DNA from: Acidobacteriota bacterium
GTDB lineage: Bacteria; Acidobacteriota; Thermoanaerobaculia; Multivoradales; UBA5704
Length of the DNA stretch: 64,000 nucleotides
NCBI GenBank assembly: GCA_040005235.1
Contig: JBDTZG010000024.1
Coordinates: forward strand, 13,583 to 77,582
Reading direction: 5' to 3'
In this document: positions 13,518 to 62,800 of the stretch, piece by piece
Position numbering within the stretch: position 1 is the stretch's first letter
Layout: each line of letters opens with the position of its first letter
Made by a program: the position numbers and the translations under genes
Notes under the pieces: model-generated
Database searches by the model: none
What the model saw: only the letters and a program-made list of their open reading frames with translations
Told to the model about the DNA's origin: nothing

Positions 13518-14033
13518 TTTTGACTTCCTTGGGGCTTCCTAGGGGTTCCCGGGGCGGCCCTCACGGGTTGTACCCGGCTGATAGCCGGGCAGTATAGCAG
13601 GGGGCCGCGACCCTTCGAGAGTGAAAACACCGCCGGGTTTACGCCACATTCCCGGCAGGGGTGCCTCCTCTCATCGGCACCTCTCATCCGAATTCCGAAA
13701 CCCGCCGTAGAGACCCTCTGAACCCGACAGCTTCTCCCCTACTTGGAGGATTGAGAACATGATTCGACTTCGTCGTGTCTCTGGCCGAGACGGGGCCGAC
13801 CTGGCGACTGCCTGAGCCGCCAACGTCAAAACCGGAGGTGCCGAATGGCAGGCGCTGATGGTCCGGACCGTGGGGGTTGAGCCCGGTTCCAATCGAAGGT
13901 GGGGGCTTGGCGGGGGATTTGGCGGTTTGGTAGGAAAGTGATTTGTAGCGCTCTTGGTTGCGAGGCTCTGTGTACACCCATTTCGGGCGCTCGGGGCCTC
14001 GCCTAAAAGCCGGCCCCTCTCGCTCATCGTGCC

Positions 14034-43988: not shown

Positions 43989-47117
<3,129 letters not shown>

Positions 47118-47195
47118 GGGGTCTCCCTTTTAGGGCGATGGGACTTGAAATTCATGCGCCGCTCGGAGCGGGCGGCGCGAGCGCAATGGAGCGCA

Positions 47196-47229
47196 ATAAG
47201 GCCCGCGCCGAGATTTAAGCGGCGCGGGC
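47196..47229 (-). terminator. Hairpin/terminator between 47249-48013 and the VPS10 gene
   Basis: GCCCGCGCCG-9 nt loop-CGGCGCGGGC followed by CTTATT on the minus strand. Confidence 0.5.
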
Positions 47230-47248
47230 TCGAAGCTCGTCGAATCGG

Positions 47249-48013
47249 TTACTTCGGTTTCGGCGCCGCAGCTGCCGCGAGGCTCGCCGGTTTGCCGAAC
47301 CGGTCGGCCGCTAGGGTCGGATTGACCTCGATCTTTTCGATCGTCATCGAAAATCCGCCCGGACCCGGAGCGCCTTTCTGCTTGCTCTCCGAGGAGAAAG
47401 CGTAGAGACCGCCGTCGACTTCCTTGTAGTCGCCGAAAGTGGTGATCGTCTCGACCTCCTGTCCACGCACGGTGGACTTGCCCTCGCTCTGGACCAGCAG
47501 GGAAGAGTCCGCGTCGAAATACAGGGTCTCGACGTCGCCGCTCTTCTTGGTCACCTTGAGTTTGTAGGCGGGCGCGCCTTCGAGGTCAACCTTGCCGAGC
47601 ATTTCCACCGTGTGTCCCTTGTCCTTGTAGTCGACGAACGAGCCGTCGATGTCGGCTTCGTCCTTCATCGACTTGAGTTCGTCGTCCGACATCGGCTCGG
47701 CGTCTTTCTTGCCGAGGAACGGCATCAACTGCCAGCCAGCGGTGCCGTCGGACGTGATTACGGCGGTCATTCCCTGGATCACGAACTCCAGGTGCATTTT
47801 GTTCGGGCGTGCGATTTCGACCACGAACGGCGCCTCGATTCCGGGACCGAACGTGCGTTTGCCGGTCATGCGGAGCGCCTGGACGGATTTGACCTTTTCA
47901 CGCCCACCGCGGGCCTGAATGTTCTTCTCGATCACCTCGTCGGCGGTCTGGGCGAAGGCCGAAGCGGCAAAGACCGCGGCAACGGCGAAAGTCATCAGCG
48001 ATTTGCGAAGCAT
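47249..48013 (-). CDS. Secreted LolA-like/outer-membrane lipoprotein-sorting-type protein
   Basis: AQTADEVIEK.I.ARGG, RPNK, FGDYKEV.G, IE.NP.L. Confidence 0.7.
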   Translation of the reverse strand: MLRKSLMTFAVAAVFAASAFAQTADEVIEKNIQARGGREKVKSVQALRMTGKRTFGPGIEAPFVVEIARPNKMHLEFVIQGMTAVITSDGTAGWQLMPFLGKKDAEPMSDDELKSMKDEADIDGSFVDYKDKGHTVEMLGKVDLEGAPAYKLKVTKKSGDVETLYFDADSSLLVQSEGKSTVRGQEVETITTFGDYKEVDGGLYAFSSESKQKGAPGPGGFSMTIEKIEVNPTLAADRFGKPASLAAAAAPKPK

Positions 48014-48225
48014 GCTCGTTCTCTCCTCTAAAGCGGCTCGGTAGGCAGGCGAGCTTACCGGTCCCGGCCGGAGGTCTACCTTTCGGCTCTGGTGGCCGCT
48101 TTTTGAGGATACGCCGGTTTGGGGGGAAAAGTTGCGGCCGGCACGTTGCGAACGTCGCGCTCAACACCTTGCCCCTGGCCGCCTCCCCCGCTACGCTTGG
48201 CTCGCAAATCTTCTCGGGAGGATCC

Positions 48226-51200
48226 ATGCGCCGCACGATCGTCTGTTTTTTCGCGCTCGCCACTCTGCTCTCGCTCCCATCGCTCGGCGCAAGTGCCGGA
48301 ATCGATCCCGCCTTGCTCGCGGGACTCAAGGCGCGATCGATCGGTCCGGCGGCGATGAGCGGCCGGATCGCCGCGATCGATTCGGACCCACGCAATCCCT
48401 CGGTGATCTGGATCGGTTCCGCCACCGGCGGCGTCTGGAAATCCGAAAGCGCCGGCCTCACCTGGGAGCCGGTTTTCGACGATCAGCCGGTCGCCTCGAT
48501 TGGCGCGGTGGCGATCGATCCGACGAACTCCGCGGTGGTCTGGGTGGGTACCGGCGAGGGCAACCCACGCAACAGCGTCTCGATCGGCGAAGGGCTGTTC
48601 AAAACCCTCGACAGCGGCAAGACCTGGAAGCGGATGGGGCTTGAGAAGACGGAGCACATCCATCGGATCGCGATCGACCCGCGCAACCCCCAAACCGCCT
48701 ACGTGGCGGCCCTCGGCAAGATTTGGGGCGAGAACCCCGAGCGTGGCGTCTACAAGACGACCGACGGCGGCGCCACATGGCGGCGCGTGCTCTACGTCGA
48801 CGAGCGCACCGGCGCCGCGGACCTGGTGATGGACCCGAGCAACCCGAACAAGCTGTACGCGGCGATGTGGGACTACCGGCGCTGGCCGTACAAATTTCGC
48901 TCCGGCGGCCCGGGCTCGGGGCTCTACGTGAGCAACGACGGCGGCGAAAACTGGAAGCGGCTGACCGAGGACGACGGCCTGCCGAAAGGCGAGCTGGGCC
49001 GGATCGGTCTTGCGATCGCGCCCTCGAACCCGAAAATCGTCTACGCGCTGGTCGAGGCGAAGAAGCCGGCCCTGCTCCGATCGGACGACGGGGGCCTGAC
49101 CTGGGATGCGGTCAACAGCGATCCGGACATCAACGAGCGGCCCTTCTATTTCGCCGACATCCGCGTCGATTCGGCCGATCCGAACCGCCTCTATCGGCTG
49201 GAGGTGTCGCTCGACGTCTCGACCGACGCGGGCAAGACCTGGAAGACCTTGGCGAGCTCAAGCGCGGCGCATCCCGATCATCATGCGCTCTGGGTCGATC
49301 CGCTCGATCCGAACCACCTGATCGACGGCAACGACGGAGGCGTGTTCACCACTCGCGACCATGGGGACACCTGGTCGTTCGCGGGGGGCCTGCCGCTCTC
49401 TCAGCTCTACCACATAAGGTACGACAACGACCTGCCGTACCACGTCTACGGCGGCTTGCAGGACAACGGCTCGTGGCGCGGCCCCTCCTCCGTCTGGGAG
49501 GGTGGCGATATCCGCAACCTGCATTGGCAGGAGGTCTGCTTCGGCGACGGTTTCGATACCGCCCCGGATCCGCGCGATTCCTCAAAAGGGTACGCGATGA
49601 GCCAAGGGGGCGCGCTGATTCGCTGGGATCTGAACACCGGCGAGCGCAAATCGATCCAACCGGTGCGCGAAAAGGATGGCCCTGAGCTGCGCTTCAACTG
49701 GAACTCCGCCCTCGGCCTCGATCCGTTCGACCCTGACACGATCTATTACGGCAGCCAGTTCGTCCACAAATCGGTCGACCGAGGCGAGACCTGGACGGTG
49801 ATCAGCCCCGATCTCACCACCAACCGCGCCGAGTGGCAGCCGAAGGAAACCGGCGGCGTGACCCAGGACGTGACGGGCGCCGAGAATTACACGACGCTGC
49901 TCGCCATCGAACCGAGCCCCAAGGCGAAGGACCTGCTCTGGGTGGGTTCGGACGACGGTCGCTTGCAGATCACGCGGAACGGCGGCAAGGATTGGACGAG
50001 TGTCGAAGGCCACGTCCCCGGCGTCCCGGCGAACACGTGGATTCCGCACATCCACGTTTCGACCTACGACCCGGCGACGGCGTTCGTGGTGTTCGACGAC
50101 CACCGGCGCGCGAATTACGCCACTTACGTCTACCGGACCGACGACTACGGCAAGACCTGGAAGAGCCTCGCGACGCCGGACCTTCGCGGCTACGCCCTCG
50201 CGATCACCCAAGATCCTGTCACCCCGAATCTGCTGTTCCTGGGCACCGAATTCGGCCTCTGGTTCTCGCTCGATGGCGGCGGCAAGTGGTATCCCTTCCG
50301 GCATGGCCTGCCTACCGTCTCGGTGATGGACCTCGCGATCCAGCCCCGCGATCGCGACCTGCTGATCGCCACCCATGGCCGCGGCATCTACATCGTGGAC
50401 GACATCGAATCGCTGCGAGAGCTGACCGCGGCGACGCTCGCCGAGCCGCTCCATCTGTTTCCGATCGCCGACGCGCAGCAGTTTTGGGCCTCTCGCTCGA
50501 CCGGACCGCGGTTCCCGGGGGGCAATGACTACAAGGGAAAGAACAGGCCCTACGGCGCTGCGCTGACGTTCGTGGTCAACAGTCCCGACCTGCCTCATCC
50601 CGACGCGGCGATCGAGCGCGAGCGAAAGGAGGCCAAGAGAAAGGCCGATGTCGCAACTCCTGAGGCGCAGAAGCCGGGCGGCGGGAACACCCCGGGCACC
50701 GAGGGCGACAAGAAGACGAAGGTGCAGATTCAGGTCAGCAACGCCGCGGGAGAGCGGGTTCGCTCGTTCGAGCAGAGAGTCACGCAGGGGGTCAACCGGG
50801 TCGCCTGGGATCTCCGCGGCGACCCCTTCAAAGAGCCGCCGACCAAGAAACCGCCCTCACCCTTCCGCTCCGGCGGGCCGCAGGTCGTCCCAGGCACCTA
50901 CACGGTCAAGATCACCTATGGCGACAAGTCCGCAGAAGGCCCCGTTCGCGTGGTGGGCGATCCGCGATTCCACCTGTCGGAGGCCGATCGGGCGGCAAAC
51001 GACGCCGCGATGCACCGCGCCGGAGCGCTCAAAGAGCGCGTCTCCCTCGCCGTCGAACGGATCGTCCGGACGAAATCCGACCTCAAAACGATCCTCGATC
51101 GGGTCAACCGGCGCGACGACGAGCGCCGAAGGACCGACGGAACGACCGAAAAATCGTCGGAGGTCAAGGCCCTGGAGAAGGCGGCAAAAGATCTCCGCCA

Positions 51201-51477
51201 AAAGTTGGAAGGCGTCGAGCGGAAGCTCTGGAAGTCCGACGAGATCGTCGGCCGCCCCAAAGGCGACGACCTGGCCTCGGAGCTTGACGATCTACTCTCC
51301 CGACTCGGCAGCTCCTGGGACGCCCCGAACGCCACGCTGCTCATGGGGATCGAAGAGGAGGAGGAAAAAGCCGGCCCGATCTTCGCGGAACTGGACGACC
51401 TGCTCACGAAGGACGTCGCGGCCTTCCGCTCGATGGTTCCGGCGGGGGAACTGGAGTTGTTGGGTGGAGGGCGGTAA
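48226..51477 (+). CDS. VPS10/sortilin-like BNR-repeat glycosyl hydrolase (second paralogue)
   Basis: RSIGPAAMSGRI, Asp-boxes, GGLQDNGSW, RFNWN. Confidence 0.88.
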   Translation: MRRTIVCFFALATLLSLPSLGASAGIDPALLAGLKARSIGPAAMSGRIAAIDSDPRNPSVIWIGSATGGVWKSESAGLTWEPVFDDQPVASIGAVAIDPTNSAVVWVGTGEGNPRNSVSIGEGLFKTLDSGKTWKRMGLEKTEHIHRIAIDPRNPQTAYVAALGKIWGENPERGVYKTTDGGATWRRVLYVDERTGAADLVMDPSNPNKLYAAMWDYRRWPYKFRSGGPGSGLYVSNDGGENWKRLTEDDGLPKGELGRIGLAIAPSNPKIVYALVEAKKPALLRSDDGGLTWDAVNSDPDINERPFYFADIRVDSADPNRLYRLEVSLDVSTDAGKTWKTLASSSAAHPDHHALWVDPLDPNHLIDGNDGGVFTTRDHGDTWSFAGGLPLSQLYHIRYDNDLPYHVYGGLQDNGSWRGPSSVWEGGDIRNLHWQEVCFGDGFDTAPDPRDSSKGYAMSQGGALIRWDLNTGERKSIQPVREKDGPELRFNWNSALGLDPFDPDTIYYGSQFVHKSVDRGETWTVISPDLTTNRAEWQPKETGGVTQDVTGAENYTTLLAIEPSPKAKDLLWVGSDDGRLQITRNGGKDWTSVEGHVPGVPANTWIPHIHVSTYDPATAFVVFDDHRRANYATYVYRTDDYGKTWKSLATPDLRGYALAITQDPVTPNLLFLGTEFGLWFSLDGGGKWYPFRHGLPTVSVMDLAIQPRDRDLLIATHGRGIYIVDDIESLRELTAATLAEPLHLFPIADAQQFWASRSTGPRFPGGNDYKGKNRPYGAALTFVVNSPDLPHPDAAIERERKEAKRKADVATPEAQKPGGGNTPGTEGDKKTKVQIQVSNAAGERVRSFEQRVTQGVNRVAWDLRGDPFKEPPTKKPPSPFRSGGPQVVPGTYTVKITYGDKSAEGPVRVVGDPRFHLSEADRAANDAAMHRAGALKERVSLAVERIVRTKSDLKTILDRVNRRDDERRRTDGTTEKSSEVKALEKAAKDLRQKLEGVERKLWKSDEIVGRPKGDDLASELDDLLSRLGSSWDAPNATLLMGIEEEEEKAGPIFAELDDLLTKDVAAFRSMVPAGELELLGGGR

Positions 51478-51629
51478 CGGCAGGGGAAGCTCACCGAACT
51501 CGTTCGGGAGGCCCCTTTCAGCCCACCACGGGGTACTTTTCCCTCCCCCAGGATCCGCCCGCCCGACAAGGAATAGCCGTACCTGAGCCCGCATAGCCGC
51601 CGCAGCCGATGAAAAGCGAGGAGGTGCGG

Positions 51630-52301
51630 TTATTTGCGAGTGGTACCGCGATTCTCCTCGCGGGTTGAATCGATAATCTGCATTGCGGCAGTGGTCAAGG
51701 CACCTCGGCTGAGTGTTCCGTCAAGTCTCTTGACGTTGGAGGCTATCGACGCCAGTGCCTCATAACGACTCCGAACCTCTCCAAAAAACTCGGACCCTTT
51801 TAATTCAATTACATCTCGGGCTCGCTGCCTTAATCGCTCCTCGCAGACACCTACCGGGGTATCAATCCACAAGATCAGGTCAGCAATCTCAACCGGCGTC
51901 GTCACAAAGTCAAAAACAAGCGCCAGGCGGTGGTCCAGCGCCGGTCCATAGGCTAGATTACCAAGATAAGATCGATCAACTAGAATCAGATCAAATTTCT
52001 TAAGCCTCGGTGAGATAACAATCCTGTTCGACCGCCTGCTTGCGACAGCCCACAGAAGCTCTCTCTCAATATCGTCAAGGTCGCAATTTGGACACTTACA
52101 TACCCTGTCCAGGATCTCTGAAACAGTTAGTGTTCCGCCAGATAGCGTACTCGCGTAGTTATCCAAATCGCTACAAAACTCCTTTGTCGCCAAGACATTC
52201 AAATCAACTCTATAGGCAGAGTTTAGCGAATCGACCAACGTCGTTTTTCCGCACCCATCTATTCCGTCTATCTTAACGACAACAGCCCTTGAGTTATCCA
52301 T
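51630..52301 (-). CDS. Thymidylate-kinase-like (d)NMP kinase
   Basis: IDGIDGCGKTT P-loop, LVDRS..G.LAYG, DLILWIDTP..C.ERL. Confidence 0.82.
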   Translation of the reverse strand: MDNSRAVVVKIDGIDGCGKTTLVDSLNSAYRVDLNVLATKEFCSDLDNYASTLSGGTLTVSEILDRVCKCPNCDLDDIERELLWAVASRRSNRIVISPRLKKFDLILVDRSYLGNLAYGPALDHRLALVFDFVTTPVEIADLILWIDTPVGVCEERLRQRARDVIELKGSEFFGEVRSRYEALASIASNVKRLDGTLSRGALTTAAMQIIDSTREENRGTTRK

Positions 52302-52317
52302 CCTCGTGGTTACCCGC

Positions 52318-52995
52318 TTAGCTTTCAGGCACCGGGGGAGTGAAGTCGAGCTCGTACTGTCCGATCTCCGGAATTTCTTGCAGCTCCCTTGGTATCATAT
52401 GGCGAAACTTTTTAGCTTTTGTCGCGTAAAGTTGCCGAATATTAGGATTACTGGTATCTATAACAAGCGGCTCGGTGTTCACAACTATTCCGGCGCCAGA
52501 TACACCACTGATCTTATCCGGATTATTAGTCATCAGGCGAACCGCTTCAACGCCCTTCTTCTTCAGGAAATCTCCGATTCGAGAGAAATCTCGCCCCTCG
52601 GGGGCAACACCAATCTGCATGCGGGAGTCATAGGTATCAATGCCTTGTGTTTCTAGGTCTGTAGCTTTGACTTTAGCTGAAAGGCCCGCTCCCCGACCAT
52701 CAATTCTGAGATATAGTAGTATACCATGTTTCTCAGCTTTAAGCCTACCCAGAGCCATCTCTAATTGTTGAGCGCAATCGCACAACTCACTGCCAAATAT
52801 TTCTCCAAATACGCATTCGGAGTGGATCCGCACCAACGGCTCCAATTGACTGAACGGTGCTCCAAAATATACCGCTAGATCGCCATCTACAGCTTCAGTT
52901 AGCGACACTGATTCGACGGTAATATTCCCCCACTTTTTCGTCTTGAACGAAGCCTGCGAATGCAGAAAAGTCCTCAGGTCCATGACCGTTTCCAT
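52318..52995 (-). CDS. GTP cyclohydrolase II (RibA)-like protein, divergent
   Basis: VRIHSEC-x10-CDC Zn motif, YLR.DGRG.GL..K, RDF, RLMTNNPDK, Y..K..K..H. Confidence 0.88.
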   Translation of the reverse strand: METVMDLRTFLHSQASFKTKKWGNITVESVSLTEAVDGDLAVYFGAPFSQLEPLVRIHSECVFGEIFGSELCDCAQQLEMALGRLKAEKHGILLYLRIDGRGAGLSAKVKATDLETQGIDTYDSRMQIGVAPEGRDFSRIGDFLKKKGVEAVRLMTNNPDKISGVSGAGIVVNTEPLVIDTSNPNIRQLYATKAKKFRHMIPRELQEIPEIGQYELDFTPPVPES

Positions 52996-52997
52996 CC

Positions 52998-54356
52998 TTA
53001 ATCATCAGGTCCAGCTTGCCTGGGAACAAACTCCTCGATAATCTGTTCTAGTAGAGAATCTCTGTTGATTTCAGTGACACTTATCAGTCGGCTGCGAATA
53101 TGATGGTGGATGTATCCAAGAAACGAGTGGCCCTTCGCTGCAACGATCCCGAGAATTGAGAGGGAGGTATCTTCCATTGCAATTCGCATAAGGCGCTGAA
53201 ACTCAGGGTTCTGTAATTGTATCGGGCCAATCTCATCCACGATGAGTAAAGCTCGGCGATGAGCGAGTCCCTTGTCAATTGCCGGCAGTACCAATTCTTT
53301 CATGGTCGCGCTGTTAAGCTCATACGTGCCACTCTCTGTTTTGAGAGCTAGCTGGCCTATATGCTGACCATCGACAGTAACTGTTTCAAAACCGATGCGC
53401 TCGCTGCCGTTTCGAATCTCACGCGTAAAGAACCCAACGACCTCGAACCACGACGATCTATTTCGGATTTCGCAAACAGCTTTCTCAAGTAGGGTGCTTT
53501 TGCCTACACCAGGCTCGCCCGTTAAAAACAGGCACTTTGAGCTTAAGCGCCAAATATTTTCGACCTGTTTAAGGTAAAGGTCGTAAACGGTGCGCGAATC
53601 GTAGGCGTTTAGAGCGAAATCTAGTTTGTCGTCAAATGTTACTTGGAAACCTTGGAGACGTACCAGCGCCTCGCGATCCTTGAGACTAATGTGCCGAGGA
53701 TCTCTTATGACGACTGTAATATCCACCGGGTACGGAAAGAACCGGACCTCGATGTTTGAAGCGAAGTCTCCTGCTTCGTTAGCAAGAATCTCAATCATTC
53801 TGAGCCCACTTTGCATTCGGTCGATCATTAGATCGGGCGTGATGAGATTTGCATTTCGGAATGCCATGAAGCCCGCAATATAATTGCTGTCGGCAACGGC
53901 AACCCACCGAAGGCGACCTCCCCTTCGCACAAAGGCCAGGAGTTCCTGTCGGCAAGTTTCCGCAATTAGCCGTCCAGTTTCTTGAACCAGAACGAGTTCT
54001 TTGTCAGCCTTGATGATCAAGTCGCGCTCGCTGGACTTTCTGGAAAAGAAATCGTCAGCCACCGTCTTATCTAGAAGACGCCTTACCACTGCTTCCACGT
54101 CACGCAGTTGAGTAAAAATCTGGTCACGAGCCGCTCGGTCTTTCAAAGTACCAAATGCAACGATTCCTAACGCAGTAGCGGTAGCTCCAACGGCGTATTC
54201 GGGCTTCCCACCAAAAGTTGCGAACCACGCAGCCAGGACTGAAAGGCCGATGCTAAGGATCGTGTCGAAATTTGTCCAGATTAACAGTAGAAATCGCACT
54301 ATTCCTCGATGAGGCGCCTTGTTTTTCGGAGAATCAGGGTTCATGGACCGGAACAC
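52998..54356 (-). CDS. Two TM helices + unknown alpha/beta domain + C-terminal NTPase (THEP1/NTPase_1-like)
   Basis: Two hydrophobic helices at aa ~20-70; FLTGEPGVGKST, GFFTREIR...RIGF, IVDEIG. Confidence 0.78.
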   Translation of the reverse strand: MFRSMNPDSPKNKAPHRGIVRFLLLIWTNFDTILSIGLSVLAAWFATFGGKPEYAVGATATALGIVAFGTLKDRAARDQIFTQLRDVEAVVRRLLDKTVADDFFSRKSSERDLIIKADKELVLVQETGRLIAETCRQELLAFVRRGGRLRWVAVADSNYIAGFMAFRNANLITPDLMIDRMQSGLRMIEILANEAGDFASNIEVRFFPYPVDITVVIRDPRHISLKDREALVRLQGFQVTFDDKLDFALNAYDSRTVYDLYLKQVENIWRLSSKCLFLTGEPGVGKSTLLEKAVCEIRNRSSWFEVVGFFTREIRNGSERIGFETVTVDGQHIGQLALKTESGTYELNSATMKELVLPAIDKGLAHRRALLIVDEIGPIQLQNPEFQRLMRIAMEDTSLSILGIVAAKGHSFLGYIHHHIRSRLISVTEINRDSLLEQIIEEFVPRQAGPDD

Positions 54357-54603
54357 CTCTTGCGGTTGCTACCAAGGCTCAGTCCGAAGCTTGGTCTTCG
54401 TAGATAGTGTACGCTATCTCTTCCGGAGAGCTCCCATCGCGCGTGGAGGTTCCTGAAGACGAACAGGCAGTCGATATCTTCCCTGTCGTTGTAGACCTGA
54501 GCGGCAATCCAGAGGTCGCTTCCATGGGTGAAGGGATCGATTGTGATGAGTTTTCACAGAGAAGAGCGGCGCGCAAAGTGCCGGCTTCGGCGGCCGCCAA
54601 CGG

Positions 54604-54950
54604 GATCGGTCTTCCTTCTGGAGGGCGTGACGATTCTCCGGCAAGATCTGCTGTCCTTCTGGAAGGATCGCCTCTCTCAAGGGGTCACCGGTTTTAGGCC
54701 AATTTCACTGGTCCCTCCCAGGGGATCACTGATTTTCGGCCAAAATCACCGTTCCTTCCCGAGGGATCGCTCTTCCTTCCCAAGGGATCACTGATTTTGA
54801 GCCAAAATCACCGTTCCTTCCCGAGGGAGCACCCTTCCCTCGGTCGGGATCACTGATTTTCGGCCAAAATCGCTCTTCCCTCCCGCGGGATCGGTGATTT
54901 TGGCGCAGGATCGCCATTCCCTCAGGAAGGAACGGTGATTTTGGGGGCAA
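54604..54950. repeat. Array of ~16 imperfect 20/21-nt hairpin units
   Basis: Interspersed units ATCACTGATTTTCGGCCAAA (20 nt) and ATCACCGTTCCTTCCCGAGGG (21 nt); unit starts at 54725, 54745, 54766, 54787, 54807. Confidence 0.85.
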
Positions 54951-54951
54951 C

Positions 54952-55668
54952 CTAGCGAACGCGGCCCCCGCGCAGGCGTTCAATCAGCGCGCCCAGCGCG
55001 GCACCGATCACAACCATGGCGACGATCGGCCCGGTGTGGGACGGCAGGACGTGGCTTGGGAAGGTGAAGGGGCAGATCAGGCGCCAGGAGGAGTCGGCGA
55101 GCAGTCCAGCGGCGAGGCCGGCGAGGGCTCCGGCGGTGGCCGGTCGGAACGAGAGGCCGCGGCTCAGCAGCCAAAGGCCGATCAACAGGAGCGGCGAGGC
55201 GATCAGGAATTCGTAGTACAGGCAGGCGTTTAGCTCGACGGGCGCCAGTCCGGGCGGGGCGGGAAAGGGGCTTTGGCGGAAGGCGAGCGCCAGGCCGGCG
55301 AGGTGAAATCCGAAGGCGCCGAGGGCGCAGGCCCAGAGGGTGGTGCGCGGTAGGCTGCTCCCGGGAGTCGATTCGCGTAGCGCGCTGACCGCGACCATCA
55401 AAGCCAGAGACAACTGGGCGAACGAAAGTCCCCAGGCGAGGACCGCCCCCAGCTGCGGCAAGTCGGGCCGGAAGCCGTACTTGCTCCAGAACGTCGCGAG
55501 GGCCAGGAGCGTCCAAGGCACCAGCAGAATCGAGCGCTGAAACGGCGGCGCGAGCGGCTTGACGGGTTTCAGGTCGGCGTAGATCGCTCGGCGCAAGGCT
55601 TCAGGCAGAGCGGCGTCGTTTTCGTTGGTCATTTTTGGATCGCTCATGGTGATCATCGGGGCGGTCAC
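54952..55668 (-). CDS. NrsF/DUF1109-like membrane anti-sigma factor
   Basis: DLKPVKPL.PP, ALRE..PG, AG..AGL, L.CP....H...H; GTGA overlap with the sigma gene. Confidence 0.78.
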   Translation of the reverse strand: MTAPMITMSDPKMTNENDAALPEALRRAIYADLKPVKPLAPPFQRSILLVPWTLLALATFWSKYGFRPDLPQLGAVLAWGLSFAQLSLALMVAVSALRESTPGSSLPRTTLWACALGAFGFHLAGLALAFRQSPFPAPPGLAPVELNACLYYEFLIASPLLLIGLWLLSRGLSFRPATAGALAGLAAGLLADSSWRLICPFTFPSHVLPSHTGPIVAMVVIGAALGALIERLRGGRVR

Positions 55669-56234
55669 CCCGCCTCGCCGGCCCTCCCCGGGCCGAGCAG
55701 AATTTCTCGCAACATCACCATTCCACGATGCGCCCGGAGCTTGGCGGCCCCGCCGCGAATTCCGAGCGTCGCTCCGATCTCTTGGAACGACAGGCCCACC
55801 ACGTGGTGCAGAACCAGCGCCTCGCGGCGGTCTTCCGGCACGCCCCGCAACGCCTTCGAGAGTGCCTGGCGATCGGCCAACCCCTCGACCTCCGGCGGCA
55901 CCGGCAGCTCGGGGGCCTCCCCTTCGGGGAAGAGATCGAACCCCTTGCGCGACCTCGTGCGGCGGTCCATCAGGAACGCGTGGCGCGCGATCGCGAAAGC
56001 CCACGGCCGAACCGGCCGATCCCGCTGGTAGGTGTGACGCGCTCGGTGCAGCTGGAGGAACGTCTCCTGCAACAGGTCGTCCGCGACGTTGGTGCTCCGG
56101 GTCAGTGAAATGAGGTACCTCCGCAGGGGTGGCGAGAGGGCTTGATAAAGATCTTCGAACGCTCGCCCGTCGCCCTGCTGGTACCGGACCATGAGGGCGG
56201 AGAGCTCGTCGGCCGAACCTTCGGCTGGTTCCAC
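55665..56234 (-). CDS. ECF RNA polymerase sigma factor
   Basis: LMVRYQQGD..AF..LY, ADDLLQETFL, W.FAIAR, SFQEI..AAKLRAHRG. Confidence 0.92.
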   Translation of the reverse strand: MEPAEGSADELSALMVRYQQGDGRAFEDLYQALSPPLRRYLISLTRSTNVADDLLQETFLQLHRARHTYQRDRPVRPWAFAIARHAFLMDRRTRSRKGFDLFPEGEAPELPVPPEVEGLADRQALSKALRGVPEDRREALVLHHVVGLSFQEIGATLGIRGGAAKLRAHRGMVMLREILLGPGRAGEAG

Positions 56235-56433
56235 TCCACTCCCTCCTATGCCGCGGTCGGGGCGGCGGTTACAACGCTTCGTGGGGCGCGGCGGTCGGAA
56301 AGGCAGGCGCCGGGTGCGGCGTTCCGAAACAGATGGTGTTCGAGTGCGCAATCTATCGCAGGGAGAGCAGGATGGCGAGCAGGGGCCGGCCGGTTCCCTG
56401 TACACTTGGAGCCTGCCGAGGAGGTCCTTTTTG

Positions 56434-56724
56434 ATGTTAGAAAACGTGACGATCGATACGTTCGCCGGCCACAAAGGCTCCGCTTTTCGGATGGTCGCGG
56501 CCGAGAACCTCGCCTTGGAGGTCACGCTCGCGCAAGTGACGGCGCTCGGCGATTCGGGGGGGCGCCAGGCCTTTTCACTGGAATTCCTGGCGCCGCTCGG
56601 CGGCCCGATCTTCCCCCAAAGTATTTATCGCTTCGAGCATGAGGCGCTCGGCGCGCTCGACCTTTTCGCGGTGCCGCTCGGCCCGAAGGGTGGAGGTTTT
56701 CGCTACGAGGTGATCTTCACTTGA
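56434..56724 (+). CDS. DUF6916-like small protein
   Basis: FSLEF......PQ.IY.FEH..LG.L.LF.VPLGP....YE.IF; RBS GAGGAGG. Confidence 0.75.
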   Translation: MLENVTIDTFAGHKGSAFRMVAAENLALEVTLAQVTALGDSGGRQAFSLEFLAPLGGPIFPQSIYRFEHEALGALDLFAVPLGPKGGGFRYEVIFT

Positions 56725-57241
56725 TCTCGGCGTAAGCGGGCAAAGACGCCGCCGGGCCGGGCGTGGCGCCGGGCGGTAGGTATTCCATCAGGAAGTAGAC
56801 GCTGTTCTCGCCGACCTTCTTGAACCCCAAACGCTCATAAAGGCGAAGCGCGGGATTCAGCTGCTCGACGTGGATCGTTAGCGGCAGGCAGGCCGCCGTG
56901 GCCTCTCCGATCAGGCGATTGAGGTATGCCGTTCCAATCCCCCGGTTTCGATGGGCGGCGGCGATCGCGATGTCCATCAAGCGGATTTCCTTCAGGCGGC
57001 GATGGATGTAGAGGCGGCCCGCCCGGTCGCCATTGGCCAGGATCAGCGACAGCTCGGCCCCGGGATAATTCTCGCGGTAGAAGACGTCTTGCGCGTGGAA
57101 CTGCATCGCGCAGAACCCGAACTTCTGCTCGGGGGTCCAGTCGGTCACCGAAAGCTCTTGCTCCCGCGTGCCGGCATAGAGCTCAAGCAGGAACGGTCGA
57201 TCCTCTTCAGTGACCGGCCGCAACGAGAGATCGGAGGCCAT
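56717..57241 (-). CDS. GNAT N-acetyltransferase
   Basis: LRP....D.PFL.ELYA.TR, MQF.AQ, RNRGIG, NPALRLYERLGF. Confidence 0.9.
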   Translation of the reverse strand: MASDLSLRPVTEEDRPFLLELYAGTREQELSVTDWTPEQKFGFCAMQFHAQDVFYRENYPGAELSLILANGDRAGRLYIHRRLKEIRLMDIAIAAAHRNRGIGTAYLNRLIGEATAACLPLTIHVEQLNPALRLYERLGFKKVGENSVYFLMEYLPPGATPGPAASLPAYAEIK

Positions 57242-57263
57242 GCTCCCTTTCCGCTCGCGGGCG

Positions 57264-58022
57264 TTACAACGCTTCGGGCGCGAGCTCGACCGCCATCAAG
57301 ATCGAGGCATAGCGTACCGCAGCGCGCGGGCCGGCGATCGCGGAAAGCCCGACGTCCCGCGCCCACGTTCCCGGTGTCAGGCCGAGGAGGTACAGGCCGC
57401 GGCGGAGCCGCGGCATGCCGGACTCTCGATCGATCGTGAATCGCGTGGTGAAACGGGAAACCAGCCCTGCGGTATCTCTGACTGCCAGACTGAGCTCCAG
57501 TGGCGACTCCTGGGCGTGCTCGAATTCGAAGCGGACCGGCGGGCTGGGGTTCCATCCGCCGCGACGGCGGAGGCTCCAGGCCGCGAAGCGGTTCGGCCGG
57601 TCGTCGATCGGATCGAACGAAGGAAAGATCACGTCCAGGTCCGCGGCGAGAGGCAGCAGCTCGCGCTGCTTCGCTTCAAACGCCGTCGGCGGGTAGAGAC
57701 CCCGGATTGCAATGCGGAGCGGCCGGCCATAAAGCTCGCCGTCGCCCGCCCACAGAGAATCGGCCGGTACGACCCGAAGGCCGGTTTCGGCGTCGGCCTC
57801 AAGGCCGGGGCGGCGCACAGCTCGCGGCAGACGCTTCAGGCTGCGGAGAGTTTCGCTGCCGTCGACGTAGCCGACGGAGAGCGGCGCGGTTTTACCCTCC
57901 TGCGCCCACGCGAACGTAGGCAGCGACGCGCCGAGAATTCCAACCGAAGAGAGCGTTAAAAACTCGCGACGGCTCCACTCCTGCACCGACAAGGAACGAA
58001 CGACAGAGATCGAAGAAGACAT
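57264..58022 (-). CDS. Tat-exported hypothetical protein
   Basis: SRREFL twin-arginine signal followed by a hydrophobic core and AWA. Confidence 0.65.
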   Translation of the reverse strand: MSSSISVVRSLSVQEWSRREFLTLSSVGILGASLPTFAWAQEGKTAPLSVGYVDGSETLRSLKRLPRAVRRPGLEADAETGLRVVPADSLWAGDGELYGRPLRIAIRGLYPPTAFEAKQRELLPLAADLDVIFPSFDPIDDRPNRFAAWSLRRRGGWNPSPPVRFEFEHAQESPLELSLAVRDTAGLVSRFTTRFTIDRESGMPRLRRGLYLLGLTPGTWARDVGLSAIAGPRAAVRYASILMAVELAPEAL

Positions 58023-58239
58023 GAGATGCCTCGCAGAGGTTCAGGAGCGAGAAGAGCCGTCCCTGAGCCGGAAGTTGCGCCGGACAATGCGGGCACGCTA
58101 GCACACCCCGGGCGCGGAAGGCGCACGGAATCAACACTTTAGACAGCCGGTACATGTGCGATCGAGCGAAGTAGAGAGCGGGCGAACGGCTCCCCTCGCG
58201 GGAGGAGCACGCTCTACTGCAGAAGCCTCTAAAGAGGCT

Positions 58240-58761
58240 TCAAGTGCGCGGGGGGTAGACGCCCTGAAGGGCGATGTTGAAGTAGAACGTCAGGTACGGC
58301 TGCAGGTTGTTGTGCGGCTGGTCGCCGCCTGCGGGTGGAAGTCCCTGATCCGACATCGGGACCAGCGGTGCACCTGCGGGAGGCACATAACCGTTGCCGG
58401 CTGCCGGCCTCGCGAAAGAGTTGCTGGCGGCGCTGGTTCGGTTGCCAGGGGCTCCCAGTGACATCAGGGGATGACTATGTGAAGGGATTTCACTTTCTAG
58501 CAGGCTGACAGTTTCGCTGCCGCCAGTCTCGCCGAGGTCATGCAGCGAAAGGCCAGGACCTTGCCCCGGGTGCATCGGCGCTCTTCCTTGAAGGTCGGGC
58601 AAGGCGAAGTTGGACTTTCCATCACCCCCGTACGTCGTTCCCAGGAGCGAGAAGAGGGCGGTGTTCTGAGACAATGGCAACAGCTGTCCGTCGCACCACG
58701 CCCAACCCTTCGGCGCGAAGTTGAACGGGAAAATGCGGATTTCTGCCACAAACGGGTCCAT
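58240..58761 (-). CDS. Phage tail-collar domain / microcystin-dependent-like protein (3)
   Basis: EIRIF.FNFAPKGWA.CDGQLL, LFSLLGTTYGGDG..NFALPDL, HNNLQPYL. Confidence 0.92.
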   Translation of the reverse strand: MDPFVAEIRIFPFNFAPKGWAWCDGQLLPLSQNTALFSLLGTTYGGDGKSNFALPDLQGRAPMHPGQGPGLSLHDLGETGGSETVSLLESEIPSHSHPLMSLGAPGNRTSAASNSFARPAAGNGYVPPAGAPLVPMSDQGLPPAGGDQPHNNLQPYLTFYFNIALQGVYPPRT

Positions 58762-58769
58762 GTCTCCTC

Positions 58770-59273
58770 CTAGGTCGGGCTCGGGAAGATCCCGAACAAG
58801 GAAATGATGAAGTCAACGCAAAGATAAGGCTGGAAGTTCGTATGAGGCTGACTTCCACCTGTCGATCCGATCGACTGCGGTGCCATCGCCGCGGCAGGGG
58901 CTCCTGACTGATAGAGGGTGGCTGCCGACGATTCAGCAGGAAGGTTGTTGTTCGCATTCGGATCGTTTCCCACCGAGTTCGAGCACAGAAGAGGATGGCT
59001 GTGGGCTGTGATCTGGTTTACCGTGAGAGTGATCTCTTCCGCGCCTCCGGTCTCCGCCAGGATAAAGCCGCTGCCCTGGTGAGCTGGGATCCGGCCCCGC
59101 AGGTCGGGTAGCGCGAAGGTGCTCTGACCGTCGCCGCCGTAGGTCGTTCCGATCAGTTGGAACAAGGTCTCGTTCTCGGAGATCGGCAGAAGCTGCCCTT
59201 CACAAAACATCCATCCGGCCGGGGCAAAGTTCCCGGCGAACATTCGAATCTCTCCGACGTATGGTTGGGCCAT
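58770..59273 (-). CDS. Phage tail-collar domain / microcystin-dependent-like protein (2)
   Basis: GEIRMFAGNFAPAGW.FCEGQLL..TYGGDG..FALPDLRGR. Confidence 0.92.
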   Translation of the reverse strand: MAQPYVGEIRMFAGNFAPAGWMFCEGQLLPISENETLFQLIGTTYGGDGQSTFALPDLRGRIPAHQGSGFILAETGGAEEITLTVNQITAHSHPLLCSNSVGNDPNANNNLPAESSAATLYQSGAPAAAMAPQSIGSTGGSQPHTNFQPYLCVDFIISLFGIFPSPT

Positions 59274-59282
59274 GCCGGTCTC

Positions 59283-59786
59283 CTAATTCGGACTCGGGAA
59301 GATGCCCTGGAGGGCAATCGAAAAGTTCAGGATCAAGAAAGGCTGCATGTTCAGGTGCGCTTGGGACCCGCCGACATTCGCGACGGTTCCACCGATCATG
59401 GCCGCCAAGTTCGTGGGCGCGAGGTATGGATTCGCCGGTGCCTGGCGACTCAAGAGATTCGCCGTTGGGATGGGCTGTGACGCGTCCGTTGACGTGGCGT
59501 TGAGCGTGTGCGTATGCGTCGGAAGCTCGGCGATGCTGAGCGTATGGGCCTGTTCGCCGCCCCGCTCGCCGAGGGTATGCCCGCTGCCTACGTGAATCGG
59601 AGTGCGACCGCGAAGGTCGGGCAGCCCGAAGTTGACACGACCGTCTCCCCCGAAAGTCGTCCCCAGGAGCGAGAAGAGCCCCTGGTTCTGGTTGATCGGG
59701 AGCAGCTGCCCATCACACAGCGCCCAGCCTTTGGGTGGAAAAACGAAGCTCATGATCCTTATTTCGCTCAAAAACGGTTCTGCCAT
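59283..59786 (-). CDS. Phage tail-collar domain / microcystin-dependent-like protein (1)
   Basis: EIRIMSF.FPPKGWALCDGQLL..GTTFGGDG..PDLRGR. Confidence 0.92.
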   Translation of the reverse strand: MAEPFLSEIRIMSFVFPPKGWALCDGQLLPINQNQGLFSLLGTTFGGDGRVNFGLPDLRGRTPIHVGSGHTLGERGGEQAHTLSIAELPTHTHTLNATSTDASQPIPTANLLSRQAPANPYLAPTNLAAMIGGTVANVGGSQAHLNMQPFLILNFSIALQGIFPSPN

Positions 59787-59854
59787 TTCTACCTCCCCTG
59801 GTTAGCATGTCCAGTCCGCCACAGTTCATTCATCTCTCCATTGAGGGCGATGCA

Positions 59855-62800
59855 CTACGGCGGCGTAGTGATCGGCCCGGCAATCAACGCCACCCCCGGA
59901 TCAGCGAACATCGTGCCGGTGTTGTGGCTCTGCATCTCAGCTGTGGCTGTACCGCTGGCGGGCGCGTTATCGATCAGTTCGGCCGTTGCTCCGCCGAGCT
60001 CTTCGTAGACGAACCACGCCGCGTTGCCATCGAAGGTCGGGTAGTCGTACGAGCCGTTTGGACCGACCGTCGAGGGCACTGTATTGGTTCGGATGTCCGC
60101 GCGGACCCTGGCCGGACTGCCTTGATTGTCCGCGGCGAGGAAAATTGCAGCAAGCGGGAAAGACGCTGCCGGCGCATTGTTTTGCGCGTCATTGTTGGAG
60201 ACCGTCACGTCGTTCGTCGAGACGATTCCCAAGCCCGTCGTCGTAGAGCCGAGGAATTGCATGTCAACAGCTCGGCCACCTGGGGTCTGCCGGATCACGT
60301 TGCCATCGATCAGGAGAGTGGCCGTGGTTCTGCCTTGGATCACCACCCGAACGCCGTTGCCGGTAGACGATCCCGAGCCGGCAACGCCGATGTTGCCGAT
60401 CGTGTTGCCCTGAATCCTGCCCTTGATCGTGCCGCCTGTCGAGGTAGAGGAGGAGAACACGTTGATGGCGTGAAGGGGAGTAGCCGTCATCATGTTCAAG
60501 TTGTTGAGCATCTTGAAGGTCAGGTTCGCGCTGGTGTCCTGGGTGAAGCTCGCGTGAATGCCGTTGTCGGTGAAGGTGCAGCCGGAGACCGTGAAGTCGG
60601 TGACGGTTGCCGTGTCGTGAGCTTGCACCTCGAGACCACGTTGCGGCGAGTTGGTGCTAAAGGTGGCGCCGCTGATCGTTGCGGCGGTCGTGGTTGACGT
60701 CCCCGAGGCCTCGAAAAGGAACGAGTTGGCACCGGTGGTGTCGCTGATGTTGTTGTAAGCACCGCCACTGACGTTCATCGTCAGCGTGCCCAGGGTATTC
60801 CGGATGTGGACGTTGTTATGCGCCGACGAGCTGACCGTGGTGTTGGTGAGGTTCAGCGTGCCCGTAATGCCGGTCGTCGCGCCGCTCTCCAATCCCAACT
60901 GGATCCCGTCATCGGTCGTCGCGTTGCCGTTGCCGGTGACGCTGCACCCGATTAGATTTAAATTGGTCACGCTCTCGCCGTGGATCCCGTCGTCGGTGCC
61001 GTTTTGTACGTTCATCGAGCTGAGGCTCGCGTTCTGCGTGGACATGAGCAGTACGCCTGGCCCCGATGCTTTTTGGATCGTCCCGCCAGTGCCGGCGCCG
61101 CCGGTACCGCTGACCGTCAACCCGCCGAGCACGCCCGTAGTGTTGAGGACGATGCCGTTCGTCGGACCGCTCGCGGCGGTACCCGCCGTGATGCTTCGGA
61201 ACTTGAGCCCGCCAGCACCTATGGTGGTGTTGGCTACGTTGAGCGCGGTCGCGGTGGTGGTGGTGAGAGTGCTCGTCGTATCGGTCGCCGTGACGGTTCC
61301 ACCTCCCGTCGCCGCGAACGCCGGGCTCGTGCCGGTGGTTGCCGCGATGCCGCCCGAGAAGTTGATCGTTGCCCCGGTGTTCGTGGTCAGCGAGATGCCG
61401 CTGCCCGACTCGGTGATCGCTCCGCTGATCGACACCGTGTCGCTGGTTCGGCTCGTGACCACGACGGCGTTGCCCGAGGTATTGATGATCGGGATACCGA
61501 GGGTGATGTTGCCGTTGCCGCCGCTGATGTTGACCGCGGTGCCGGAAGCGCCGACCGGGTCGGCGATCTGGCCGGTGCCCGCGGAGAGCGCGGTCGATCC
61601 GACGCCACCGAACGCGCTGACCAGGGACAGTCCCGTGGTCGTCGAGTTCGTCGAGCGCAGGAAGTTGAGAGGCAGGCTGATCGAGGCGTTGTTGATGCTG
61701 ACCGCCGGGCCGCCGTTCGAGTCGATGGTCGAGACTCCCGCGCCGACGGCGATTCTGAAGCCGGTTCCGGCCCCGGCGTTGAGCGCGCCGGTGCTGGATG
61801 CAAACAGGCCCGCGCCGGCATCGTTGAAGATGTCGAGGTCGGTGAACGAGAGATCACCGGTCACGCTGGTGAGCAGCATGCCGTTCGTGCTCGTGCCGTT
61901 GCCCGAAGCGCCAATGACCGTAGTGCCGCCGGACACCGTATCGAAGCTGGTGGTGGCGGCGTTCGAGTCGAAGATCGCACCCAGGATCTCGATGCCCGAA
62001 CCGCCCGTGTTGCCCGAGATCGCGTTGTTCTGGAACGCGGTGATCCGGCAGGTACCGGTGGTCCGAAGTAGGTCGATACCGCGGACTCCGGCGGTGATCG
62101 TGTTGTCGTGAATCGACAGGTTGACGGTTGAGGCGGCTCCACCGGCCGCATTGATGTCGATGCCCTCAATGCCCGAGGAACGGATCGTGTTGTTGCGGAT
62201 CTCCGTCGAGCCGGTTCCTGCGAACGCGGCCGTGAGGGTCAGGTCAATCGCGTTGGTGGCACCGGCCAGGTTCAAGCCGGCGATCTCCAGCGGTAGGGCA
62301 TCCGTGGCGCCCGCGCCGTTGCCGCCGGCATCCGTGTCGTCGATCATCGGGGTGGTTCCCGCCGCGCGCAGAAGGGTCGGGTTCGGCCCGCCGTTGACGG
62401 CGACCGCGAGAGTCAGCTGAACTCCCTCGCCGATCAGGCGCTGCGTGTTCTTGAGTACGATGCCGTTGGCCTGGCCCGTGGTGGTCCCGTTGCCGTTGTA
62501 GACGTAGATCGTGTCTCCGGCAACCGAGAAAGTCTCGGCTTCGACGAGGGTGTCGAACGGATCGAAGGAGCGGCCGAACCCGCCGGCCGCTTGGTCGTTC
62601 TTTACGTACCAGACGCGGCCAAAGCGGGTGAGCGTCACGGTTCCCGTAGCGCTCGCGGGAGCCGGGATGCCGTTGTCGGAAACCACGTAGGTGAAGGTCT
62701 CCGTGGCGCTCCCGTCGCCCTGCGCCGGCTCGAAGCTGTAGCGGCCATTGGCCTGCATGTGGACCGTGCCTACCGCAGGGTCCGAGCAATCGAACGGCGC

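Follow-up and report, generated by a model that had tools for sequence, protein, structure and literature searches.

A three-gene cassette around a RibA-like gene

The window analysed here, a stretch of 64,000 nucleotides (nt) of contig JBDTZG010000024.1 from an Acidobacteriota bacterium (assembly GCA_040005235.1, forward-strand positions 13,583 to 77,582), contains a cassette of three minus-strand genes at 51630-54356. The middle gene (52318..52995) encodes a paralogue of RibA, the GTP cyclohydrolase II (GCH II), in which the catalytic tyrosine is replaced by threonine; this RibA-like protein and the relatives that share the replacement are referred to below as the Thr clade. The protein comprises 225 amino acids (aa), or 221 aa if translation starts at Met5. 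Residues are numbered here from Met1, and the numbers are lower by four in the Met5 form (P0001). The upstream gene (52998..54356, minus strand) encodes a 452-aa partner protein that combines N-terminal helices (two predicted transmembrane segments), a PLD-fold domain lacking the HKD motif and, at the C-terminus, a THEP1-type NTPase. The downstream gene (51630..52301, minus strand) encodes a 223-aa P-loop nucleotide monophosphate kinase of a distant thymidylate-kinase type (GIDGCGKTT).

Conserved GCH II motifs and the position of Tyr105

Judged by its alignments, the RibA-like protein is a GCH II-fold enzyme in which the zinc site, the arginine at the alpha-phosphate and the other phosphate/metal motifs are intact. 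The 225-aa form matches PF00925 (Pfam) with 128.2 bits (cut-off 23.3), and its nearest matches in both sequence and structure are GTP cyclohydrolases II of 36-38 % identity. The motifs H58-S-E-C61, C72-D-C74 (after ten intervening residues), R135-D-F and T156-N-N-P-D-K161 are all present as they had been written in a preliminary description of this DNA, which had called the zinc ligands, R(DF) and TNNP.K intact. A phmmer search against the PDB aligned residues 21-123 with residues 14-116 of E. coli RibA (2bz0_A, 196 aa) with zero gaps, and the phmmer pairs match C61, C72 and C74 with Cys54, Cys65 and Cys67, R135 with Arg128 and T112 with Tyr105. A MAFFT alignment with the annotated E. coli ribA product (L036:113-703) yielded the identical register, with AKVKAT opposite NKIRAY. 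On the minus strand of the window, the zinc-ligand segment (C61-x10-C72-x-C74) corresponds to 52774..52815 and the Arg135 codon to 52591..52593.

The second hydrolysis of GCH II, in which formate is released, requires Tyr105. The equivalent residue of the RibA-like protein, Thr112 (codon ACA, 52660..52662, minus strand), closes the switch-helix stretch I98-DGRGAGLSAKVKA-T112. The preliminary description had already placed threonine at this position, and two independent alignments (phmmer against 2bz0_A and MAFFT against E. coli ribA) agree with it; the alignment to E. coli RibA, which had been named there as a check, places no tyrosine at the catalytic position. The accompanying statement that the canonical Gln-Glu pair becomes Ile-Asp was also correct, E92 being replaced by Asp across the clade and Q91 by a hydrophobic residue. 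In published accounts of GCH II, the zinc ion opens the guanine ring and a 5-formylamino intermediate precedes the loss of formate (PMC10366380, PMC9478397), while Arg128 aids, or is proposed to act in, the release of pyrophosphate (PMC10366380).

The Thr clade

The threonine is a fixed feature of a group of related proteins. A set of 121 sequences was assembled from the query and its 120 best matches in a collection of 5.8 billion proteins, extending down to approximately 50 % identity. Threonine occupies the switch position in 121 of the 121, R135 is likewise invariant (121/121), and the zinc cysteines are kept in 120, the sole gap belonging to a truncated member. The threonine lies within the near-invariant stretch Y-L-R-x-D-G-R-G-A-G-L-[AS]-A-K-V-x-A-T-x-L-E. 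At the nucleotide level, the 31 loci fetched from other genomes and metagenomes encode it by ACA (nine), ACG (eight), ACC (eight) or ACT (six). The use of all four threonine codons indicates that selection, and not a recent shared origin, maintains the residue.

When 1.84 billion representatives were searched exhaustively with HMMER, 7301 relatives were returned. Among the best 150 of these (50 %-identity representatives), the switch position is occupied by Tyr in 140, Thr in four, Arg in three, Lys in two and Met in one. A FastTree tree was built from 176 rows, which comprised the query, every fourth of the sequences P0002-P0120, the 150 representatives and the RibBA of the source organism, with five rows excluded whose aligned part was shorter than 130 residues. 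All 33 Thr leaves (33/33) are monophyletic in this tree, with support of 1.0 and a stem of approximately 1 substitution per site, and a small Nocardia group is the sister of the clade (support 0.83).

Comparison of the 33 Thr-clade sequences with 139 canonical ones, the four sister sequences being omitted, revealed 33 conserved positions that are common to both groups and represent the zinc, phosphate and Arg-nucleophile motifs; they include R56, H58, C61, C72, C74, R101, K108, D120, T121, R135, N157 and K161. At nine conserved positions the groups differ, and the changes from the E. coli to the window residue are T56 to F63, D58 to E65, E92 to D99, Y105 to T112, Q108 to E115, A117 to S124, N118 to R125, D126 to E133 and a C-terminal Tyr to L189. 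These substitutions cluster around the zinc loop and the Tyr helix. Additionally, 93 of 120 sequences have Ala or Ser in place of the CX2G glycine. The Thr clade is best described as a separate GCH II subfamily, defined by the fixed threonine and eight further substitutions.

Other departures from tyrosine were observed outside the clade. The Nocardia sister clade (P0148, P0195 and P0220) carries Lys or Arg, not Tyr, near the switch position, and at one Nocardia locus (L038:3126-7958) the sister gene has on one side a gene for an N-terminally extended PfkB-family kinase and on the other a gene for an AMP-binding enzyme, a different and possibly biosynthetic arrangement. In three long proteins (P0121, P0123 and P0130; 600-990 aa), the GCH II domain occurs two or three times in succession, and some of these domains have a residue other than Tyr at the switch position. 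If the function proposed below is right, the Thr clade, together with one Met-bearing actinomycete type and a Lys/Arg clade of Nocardia, would constitute a natural experiment on the catalytic tyrosine of GCH II.

A horizontally acquired cassette outside the riboflavin pathway

It is well supported that the RibA-like protein is not the riboflavin enzyme of the cell, as the preliminary description had also maintained. A different contig of the source genome, which is rated 100 % complete, carries a 472-aa frame with a second PF00925 match (254.3 bits), and this is a canonical, Tyr-bearing RibBA fusion. The RibA-like protein scores 150.6 with the ribA equivalog model TIGR00505, under the cut-off of 205.85, and passes the looser NCBIfam RibA subfamily model NF001591 (158.8 vs 148). 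Moreover, the low-GC cassette was not found in 40 related genomes, and the genes of the clade are always coupled to non-riboflavin genes. A search of the source genome for a formamidase of the creatininase/ArfB/BrbF family gave no match that could pass a formylated product into riboflavin synthesis.

The cassette is horizontally acquired. Its GC content is 0.484 at 52001-54000 vs 0.62-0.65 in the adjoining intervals, and the foreign low-GC segment, as delimited by the GC profile and repeat families, extends over 51600..54950 (no strand assigned) and includes a repeat array at its upstream edge. Among the 41 genomes searched, the full-length 452-aa partner occurs only in the source genome; it is missing from all of the other genomes of the genus (7/7) and from all of those of the family (24/24), and the only other match is a stand-alone NTPase domain. 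No tRNA gene was detected within 44000-62000 of the window, no convincing att-like direct repeats bracket the cassette, and the promoter and terminator scans remained at chance level.

The repeat array, at 54604-54931 directly upstream of the cassette, consists of alternating units of approximately 41 and 62 nt (families D1 and D2) with internal palindromes. A related 20-mer occurs in a single weak copy at 51536-51555, just past the other end of the cassette.

The PLD-like/THEP1 partner protein

The most constant companion of the RibA-like gene is the gene for the PLD-like/THEP1 protein, which the preliminary description had passed over. The AlphaFold2 (AF2) model of this partner, built from 19 homologues, has a predicted local distance difference test score (pLDDT) of 84.8 and shows helices at residues 16-28, 30-47 and 52-95. 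The hydrophobic helices at residues ~16-75 (54132..54311, minus strand) are read as a predicted membrane anchor, and the N-terminus is hydrophobic in 18 of the 19 aligned homologues. Residues ~100-273 (53538..54059, minus strand) adopt a PLD-superfamily fold in the model and are akin to DUF5919 models, with a template-modelling score (TM) of 0.83. No invariant or near-invariant His occurs in this domain across the 19 homologues, and the HxK(x)4D motif is missing; the absence of an invariant His is a feature shared with the non-catalytic TrmB sugar-binding and FAM83 DUF1669 domains, which the domain resembles. Residues ~274-445 (53022..53537, minus strand) form a THEP1/NTPCR-type P-loop NTPase. 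Its membership of THEP1/NTPase_1 is indicated by the domain match (PF03266, residues 276-440, 108.3 bits), by the fold and by the Walker A (G280-x4-G285-K286) and Walker B (D374-E375) motifs, which are invariant. The closest known NTPases are the THEP1 protein of Aquifex (1ye8) and human NTPCR (2i3b), from which the cassette partner differs in its fused, predicted membrane anchor.

The RibA-like gene is nearly always translationally coupled to the gene for this predicted membrane protein. In the window, 2 nt separate the partner stop codon from the RibA-like start, while in 8 of 15 partner/RibA-like gene pairs taken from open reading frame (ORF) lists the stop and start overlap by 4 nt. Of the 31 loci fetched elsewhere, 27 have a partner homologue immediately ahead of the RibA-like gene. 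The four exceptions include two loci with less than 340 nt of upstream sequence (L025 and L031), one with nothing recognisable (L033) and one with a dCTP-deaminase/dUTPase-like gene instead (L032). Eight further pairs, drawn from both protein families, have longest contigs of equal size, and a search for partner homologues among the 8000 candidates sharing most words returned 24 matches, all of the same architecture.

At the locus that has no THEP1 partner (L032:830-2681), the operon comprises the dCTP-deaminase/dUTPase-like gene (285 aa), the Thr-clade cyclohydrolase gene and a weak dCMP-deaminase-like gene (128 aa), with overlaps of 4 nt between neighbouring genes.

Kinases and other nucleotide genes

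The third gene of the window cassette probably encodes a divergent Tmk-like kinase. The protein matches PF02223 with 51.8 bits (cut-off 27) and PF01712 with 26.2 bits, remains below the cut-off of TIGR00041 (53.6 vs 83.25), and has 5xbh as its best Tmk match in the PDB (E-value 1.4e-7). Orthologues with 41-42 % identity occupy the same position in L014 and L016.

The downstream gene could be assessed in 24 cases, namely the window and the 23 loci, duplicates removed, whose downstream sequence reaches 500 nt or more. A P-loop nucleotide kinase-like gene is found there in 10 of the 24, and three families are represented: thymidylate-kinase-like genes in the window, L014 and L016, with a truncated copy in L006; AAA_17/AAA_18-type kinases in L007, L008, L012, L019 and L021; and a guanylate-kinase-like gene in L004. 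This recurrence lends contextual support to the earlier suggestion that the adjacent nucleoside monophosphate kinase is functionally linked to the cyclohydrolase. The AAA_17-type kinases of L012, L019 and L021 match the PADLOC dCTPase model (5e-8 to 1.7e-6, positions 151-325). Furthermore, dCTP-deaminase-like genes are located within the operon in L017, L020 and L032, and a thymidylate-synthase-like gene is present in L004.

Distribution and genomic neighbourhood

When one genome from each of 185,579 species was scanned by pattern, only 11 loci were identified, which by record title come from at least six phyla (Planctomycetota, Chloroflexota, Armatimonadota, represented by Chthonomonas, Bacillota, Actinomycetota and several Pseudomonadota). 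A separate metagenome scan added 20 further loci, for the total of 31 fetched; one of these, L018, is a 99.98 % duplicate of L017. The GC content of the cassette is lower than that of its flanks in 11 of 12 long loci, and integrases are encoded beside L004 and L008 and transposases beside L017.

Candidate members from other collections were examined and rejected. The 233 matches from plasmid records are all below 42 % identity and represent canonical ribA, the five matches from phage records are all below 38 % identity, and none of the 68 pattern matches in IMG/VR viral contigs is related.

Known defence genes were screened with PADLOC-DB 2.0.0. The window kinase matches the PADLOC candidate PDC-M51B (8.2e-7). 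Among the neighbours of other loci, strong matches include PDC-S15 at L005 (1.3e-57), a GajB-like fragment at L017, a type IIG fragment at L024 and, at L029, AbiEi (4.3e-66), a TIR effector (9.4e-50) and a TOTE primase-helicase. The last of these loci (L029:608-9479) is a dense defence island, in which the TIR effector is of the Pycsar/CAP12 type and the TOTE-type primase-helicase is accompanied by a DUF559 protein; a cytidylate kinase gene on the opposite strand abuts the partner gene.

Proposed function

The RibA-like gene is regarded as the signature enzyme of a small, mobile, nucleotide-centred cassette, for which a role in conflict with phages or mobile elements is the likeliest reading, although it is held tentatively. 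This role is proposed from sequence and context, and the cassette is a candidate conflict system. In the mechanism envisaged, the enzyme would take GTP or dGTP, free pyrophosphate, hydrate C8 and open the imidazole ring. Without the tyrosine, the second hydrolysis would be incomplete or altered, and a ring-opened nucleoside 5'-monophosphate of the formamidopyrimidine (FAPy) type would be released. This product would be rephosphorylated by the cassette kinase or, where there is none, by a kinase of the host or phage. The His-less PLD-like domain, which has a phosphate-ester-binding fold, would sense the ligand and so couple the NTPase and the membrane to this chemistry. Overall, guanine nucleotides would be removed and an abnormal nucleotide produced during invasion.

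The individual steps differ in strength. We infer the FAPy-type product, which the preliminary description had given as FAPy-(d)GMP, and its hand-off to the kinase as plausible steps. The recurrence of non-orthologous kinases suggests that the monophosphate needs phosphorylation, and the Tmk-like and dNK-like kinases, the dCTP deaminases and the ThyA-like gene hint at dGTP, more than GTP, as the substrate. Carried on a membrane NTPase, the His-less PLD-like domain would be well suited to sensing a ligand that bears a phosphate. That the threonine and eight other positions do not vary points to a defined product or substrate, while the co-occurrence with dCTP deaminases speaks for the destruction of a nucleotide pool. 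The chemistry or substrate of the Thr clade may also differ beyond formate release, because the clade has nine conserved changes, whereas the one Met-type sequence seen (P0237, Saccharomonospora), which lies outside the clade, retains the canonical motifs (HEGRGIGL and DTVEAN).

One elaboration, a new signalling-type immune system, seems unlikely. The kinases would raise a ring-opened, (d)GTP-derived formamidopyrimidine nucleotide to the di- or triphosphate, which would act as a second messenger or polymerase poison and be read by the PLD-like domain of the THEP1 protein; the latter would then hydrolyse NTPs or disturb the membrane. If true, this would be the second base-modified nucleotide messenger in immunity after dITP, and the first to be generated by purine ring opening.

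Several observations weigh against a conflict system built on this chemistry. No Thr-clade member was found among 72,556 plasmid records, 50,697 phage records or the IMG/VR contigs. The RibA-like protein matches none of the PADLOC families, and the partner gives only weak P-loop matches (E-values of at least 0.0047); strong known-defence neighbours occur within approximately 5 kb in only four of the 21 scanned loci (L005, L017, L024 and L029). In 14 of the 24 assessable cases there is no adjacent kinase, the downstream genes being unrelated or unrecognised. Threonine has a hydroxyl group and could still support deformylation. Finally, RibA-type enzymes are slow, which is a poor fit with bulk depletion of GTP.

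Comparison with known systems

The cassette enzyme shares with canonical RibA (2bz0/2bz1 and the RibBA fusions) the three zinc cysteines, Arg128, HSEC, GRG, the conserved K, DT and TNNPxK. It differs in having Thr for Tyr105 and changes at eight more positions, in lacking a rib context and in being a second, foreign copy. Another precedent is the Streptomyces coelicolor paralogue SCO6655, which carries Met at the switch position and reportedly stops at the formyl intermediate. Both proteins are GCH II paralogues found beside a normal riboflavin enzyme and have a residue other than Tyr at the switch, although the residue, reportedly Met in one and Thr in the other, and the genomic context differ. 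UTP cyclohydrolase (7eev/7ej3) has the same GCH II fold, although its identity is 19 %, its length is approximately 400 aa and Tyr is kept at the aligned position. With respect to GCH II copies in S. coelicolor, a review remarks that the third one 'exhibited a completely new function'.

Two defence systems offer partial parallels. The defensive dCTP deaminase is described as requiring its kinase domain (Tal et al., preprint 10.1101/2021.04.26.441389). Defence by dCTP deaminases and dGTPases resembles the cassette in combining nucleotide destruction with a P-loop kinase, and some cassettes contain dCTPase-model kinases or dCTP-deaminase-like genes; the cassette differs in its catalytic fold, in its proposed purine ring opening with loss of pyrophosphate, in its separate and optional kinase and in its constant membrane partner. 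In Kongming, a base-modifying deaminase and nucleotide kinases are described as producing dITP, which activates an effector (preprint 10.1101/2024.12.20.629578). The likeness to Kongming, which is inferential, would lie in a base modification at the level of the monophosphate, kinases that lead to the triphosphate and a separate ligand-sensing effector. In contrast to Kongming, the cassette would rely on ring opening instead of deamination and on a transmembrane/PLD-like/NTPase protein instead of an NAD-degrading complex. The kinase requirement of the dCTP deaminase and the dITP of Kongming make an immune role of the cassette plausible.

Nothing in the literature searched ties GCH II, THEP1 or DUF5919 to such a cassette or describes the partner fusion and its coupling to a GCH II-like gene, and the search found no paper on DUF5919. 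The main texts of DefensePredictor and of a domain-centric screen mention neither cyclohydrolase nor THEP1. The findings point to a new subfamily of GCH II and to the cassette as a candidate for a new conflict system directed at nucleotides.

Alternative explanations

A purely depleting system is possible, if doubtful. The enzyme would then be an effector that destroys GTP or dGTP, much as defensive dGTPases and dCTP deaminases destroy nucleotides, the identity of the product would be irrelevant, the kinases would funnel (d)GMP and (d)GDP into the triphosphate pool for destruction, and the PLD-like/THEP1 protein would act as a sensor or switch for infection. This explanation is favoured by the dCTP-deaminase-like genes that share the operon in L017, L020 and L032 and by the dCTPase-model matches of the L012, L019 and L021 kinases. 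Published work adds that pyrophosphate release and ring opening are irreversible (PMC10366380, PMC9478397) and that dCTP-deaminase defence depends on both the kinase and the deaminase domains (preprint 10.1101/2021.04.26.441389). If only depletion mattered, the tyrosine position would be expected to drift, yet all 121 sequences have threonine there and a further eight positions are likewise fixed. Moreover, known depletion effectors are single genes, whereas the RibA-like enzyme has a near-obligatory partner, and the slow turnover of GCH II also speaks against this role.

A changed substrate or chemistry, in which the enzyme would no longer treat guanine nucleotides as RibA does but might act on a different NTP, on a nucleotide that is modified or damaged, or on a signal resembling a nucleotide, appears unlikely. 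The threonine would then be one of several pocket changes and no switch for formate release. The nine clade-specific substitutions around the zinc loop and the Tyr helix, the replacement of the CX2G Gly in 93 of 120 sequences, the Nocardia sister clade with its Lys or Arg near the switch and its different neighbourhood, and the fact that the GCH II fold also houses UTP cyclohydrolase are all consistent with it. However, the zinc, phosphate and Arg-nucleophile residues of the canonical GTP enzymes are all retained, and the nearest matches are themselves GTP cyclohydrolases II (36-38 % identity).

Even a metabolic role outside defence, such as a module for the nucleotide pool or salvage under stress, or the early steps towards a nucleoside-derived metabolite made at the membrane, would have some basis, in that 17 of the 21 scanned loci have no strong defence matches and their neighbours are mostly ordinary, MerR-type regulators with ligand-binding domains are encoded beside L006, L010 and L028, and the Nocardia sister gene, next to its PfkB kinase and AMP-binding enzyme genes, looks biosynthetic. 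Such a role is nonetheless distinctly unlikely. The surroundings of the Thr clade contain no further conserved biosynthetic genes. The clade is sporadic over phyla and missing from close relatives, and the cassette has a low-GC signature and occurs in association with integrases, transposases, and genes for defence or toxin-antitoxin systems.

An alternative entry into riboflavin or deazaflavin synthesis, in which a 'GTP cyclohydrolase III-like' enzyme would supply the formylated intermediate to a separate formamidase, is highly improbable: such a bacterial route is described in Sinorhizobium with its cyclohydrolase unidentified (PMC9478397), but the source genome has a complete RibBA and no detected creatininase-family formamidase, the Thr clade is mobile and very rarely encountered, the record titles of the 11 genome loci include no member of the Rhizobiales, and the neighbourhoods contain no rib genes.

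Implications

Public records name the two protein families 'GTP cyclohydrolase II (RibA)' and 'nucleoside-triphosphatase THEP1', and the annotation 'GTP cyclohydrolase II RibA' would mislead metabolic reconstructions. If the proposed conflict role is true, a vitamin-pathway enzyme with a fixed active-site change has been recruited into a mobile three-part nucleotide system, and the means by which bacteria attack or re-code nucleotide pools in conflict would include purine ring opening besides deamination and triphosphate hydrolysis. It would also provide the first context for two poorly understood modules, bacterial THEP1-type NTPases and DUF5919-like PLD-fold domains.

Other features of the window

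Past the repeat array, translations reveal an ORF for an ECF-type sigma factor-like protein (55665-56525, minus strand), which overlaps a membrane protein ORF (54952-56004, minus strand). Just downstream of the cassette, a small lipoprotein-like ORF is flanked by two paralogous ORFs of opposite orientation (43989-47117 and 48103-51477; 1042 and 1124 aa), which contain the repeated motif S/T-x-D-G-G-x-T-W and appear BNR/sortilin-like by eye. Further away, at 58240-59786 on the minus strand, three tandem paralogous ORFs of 167-173 aa share an N-terminal motif, and presumably resemble phage-tail-collar or microcystin-dependent-protein domains; they lie beside a 1360-aa repeat-rich ORF (59855-63937).

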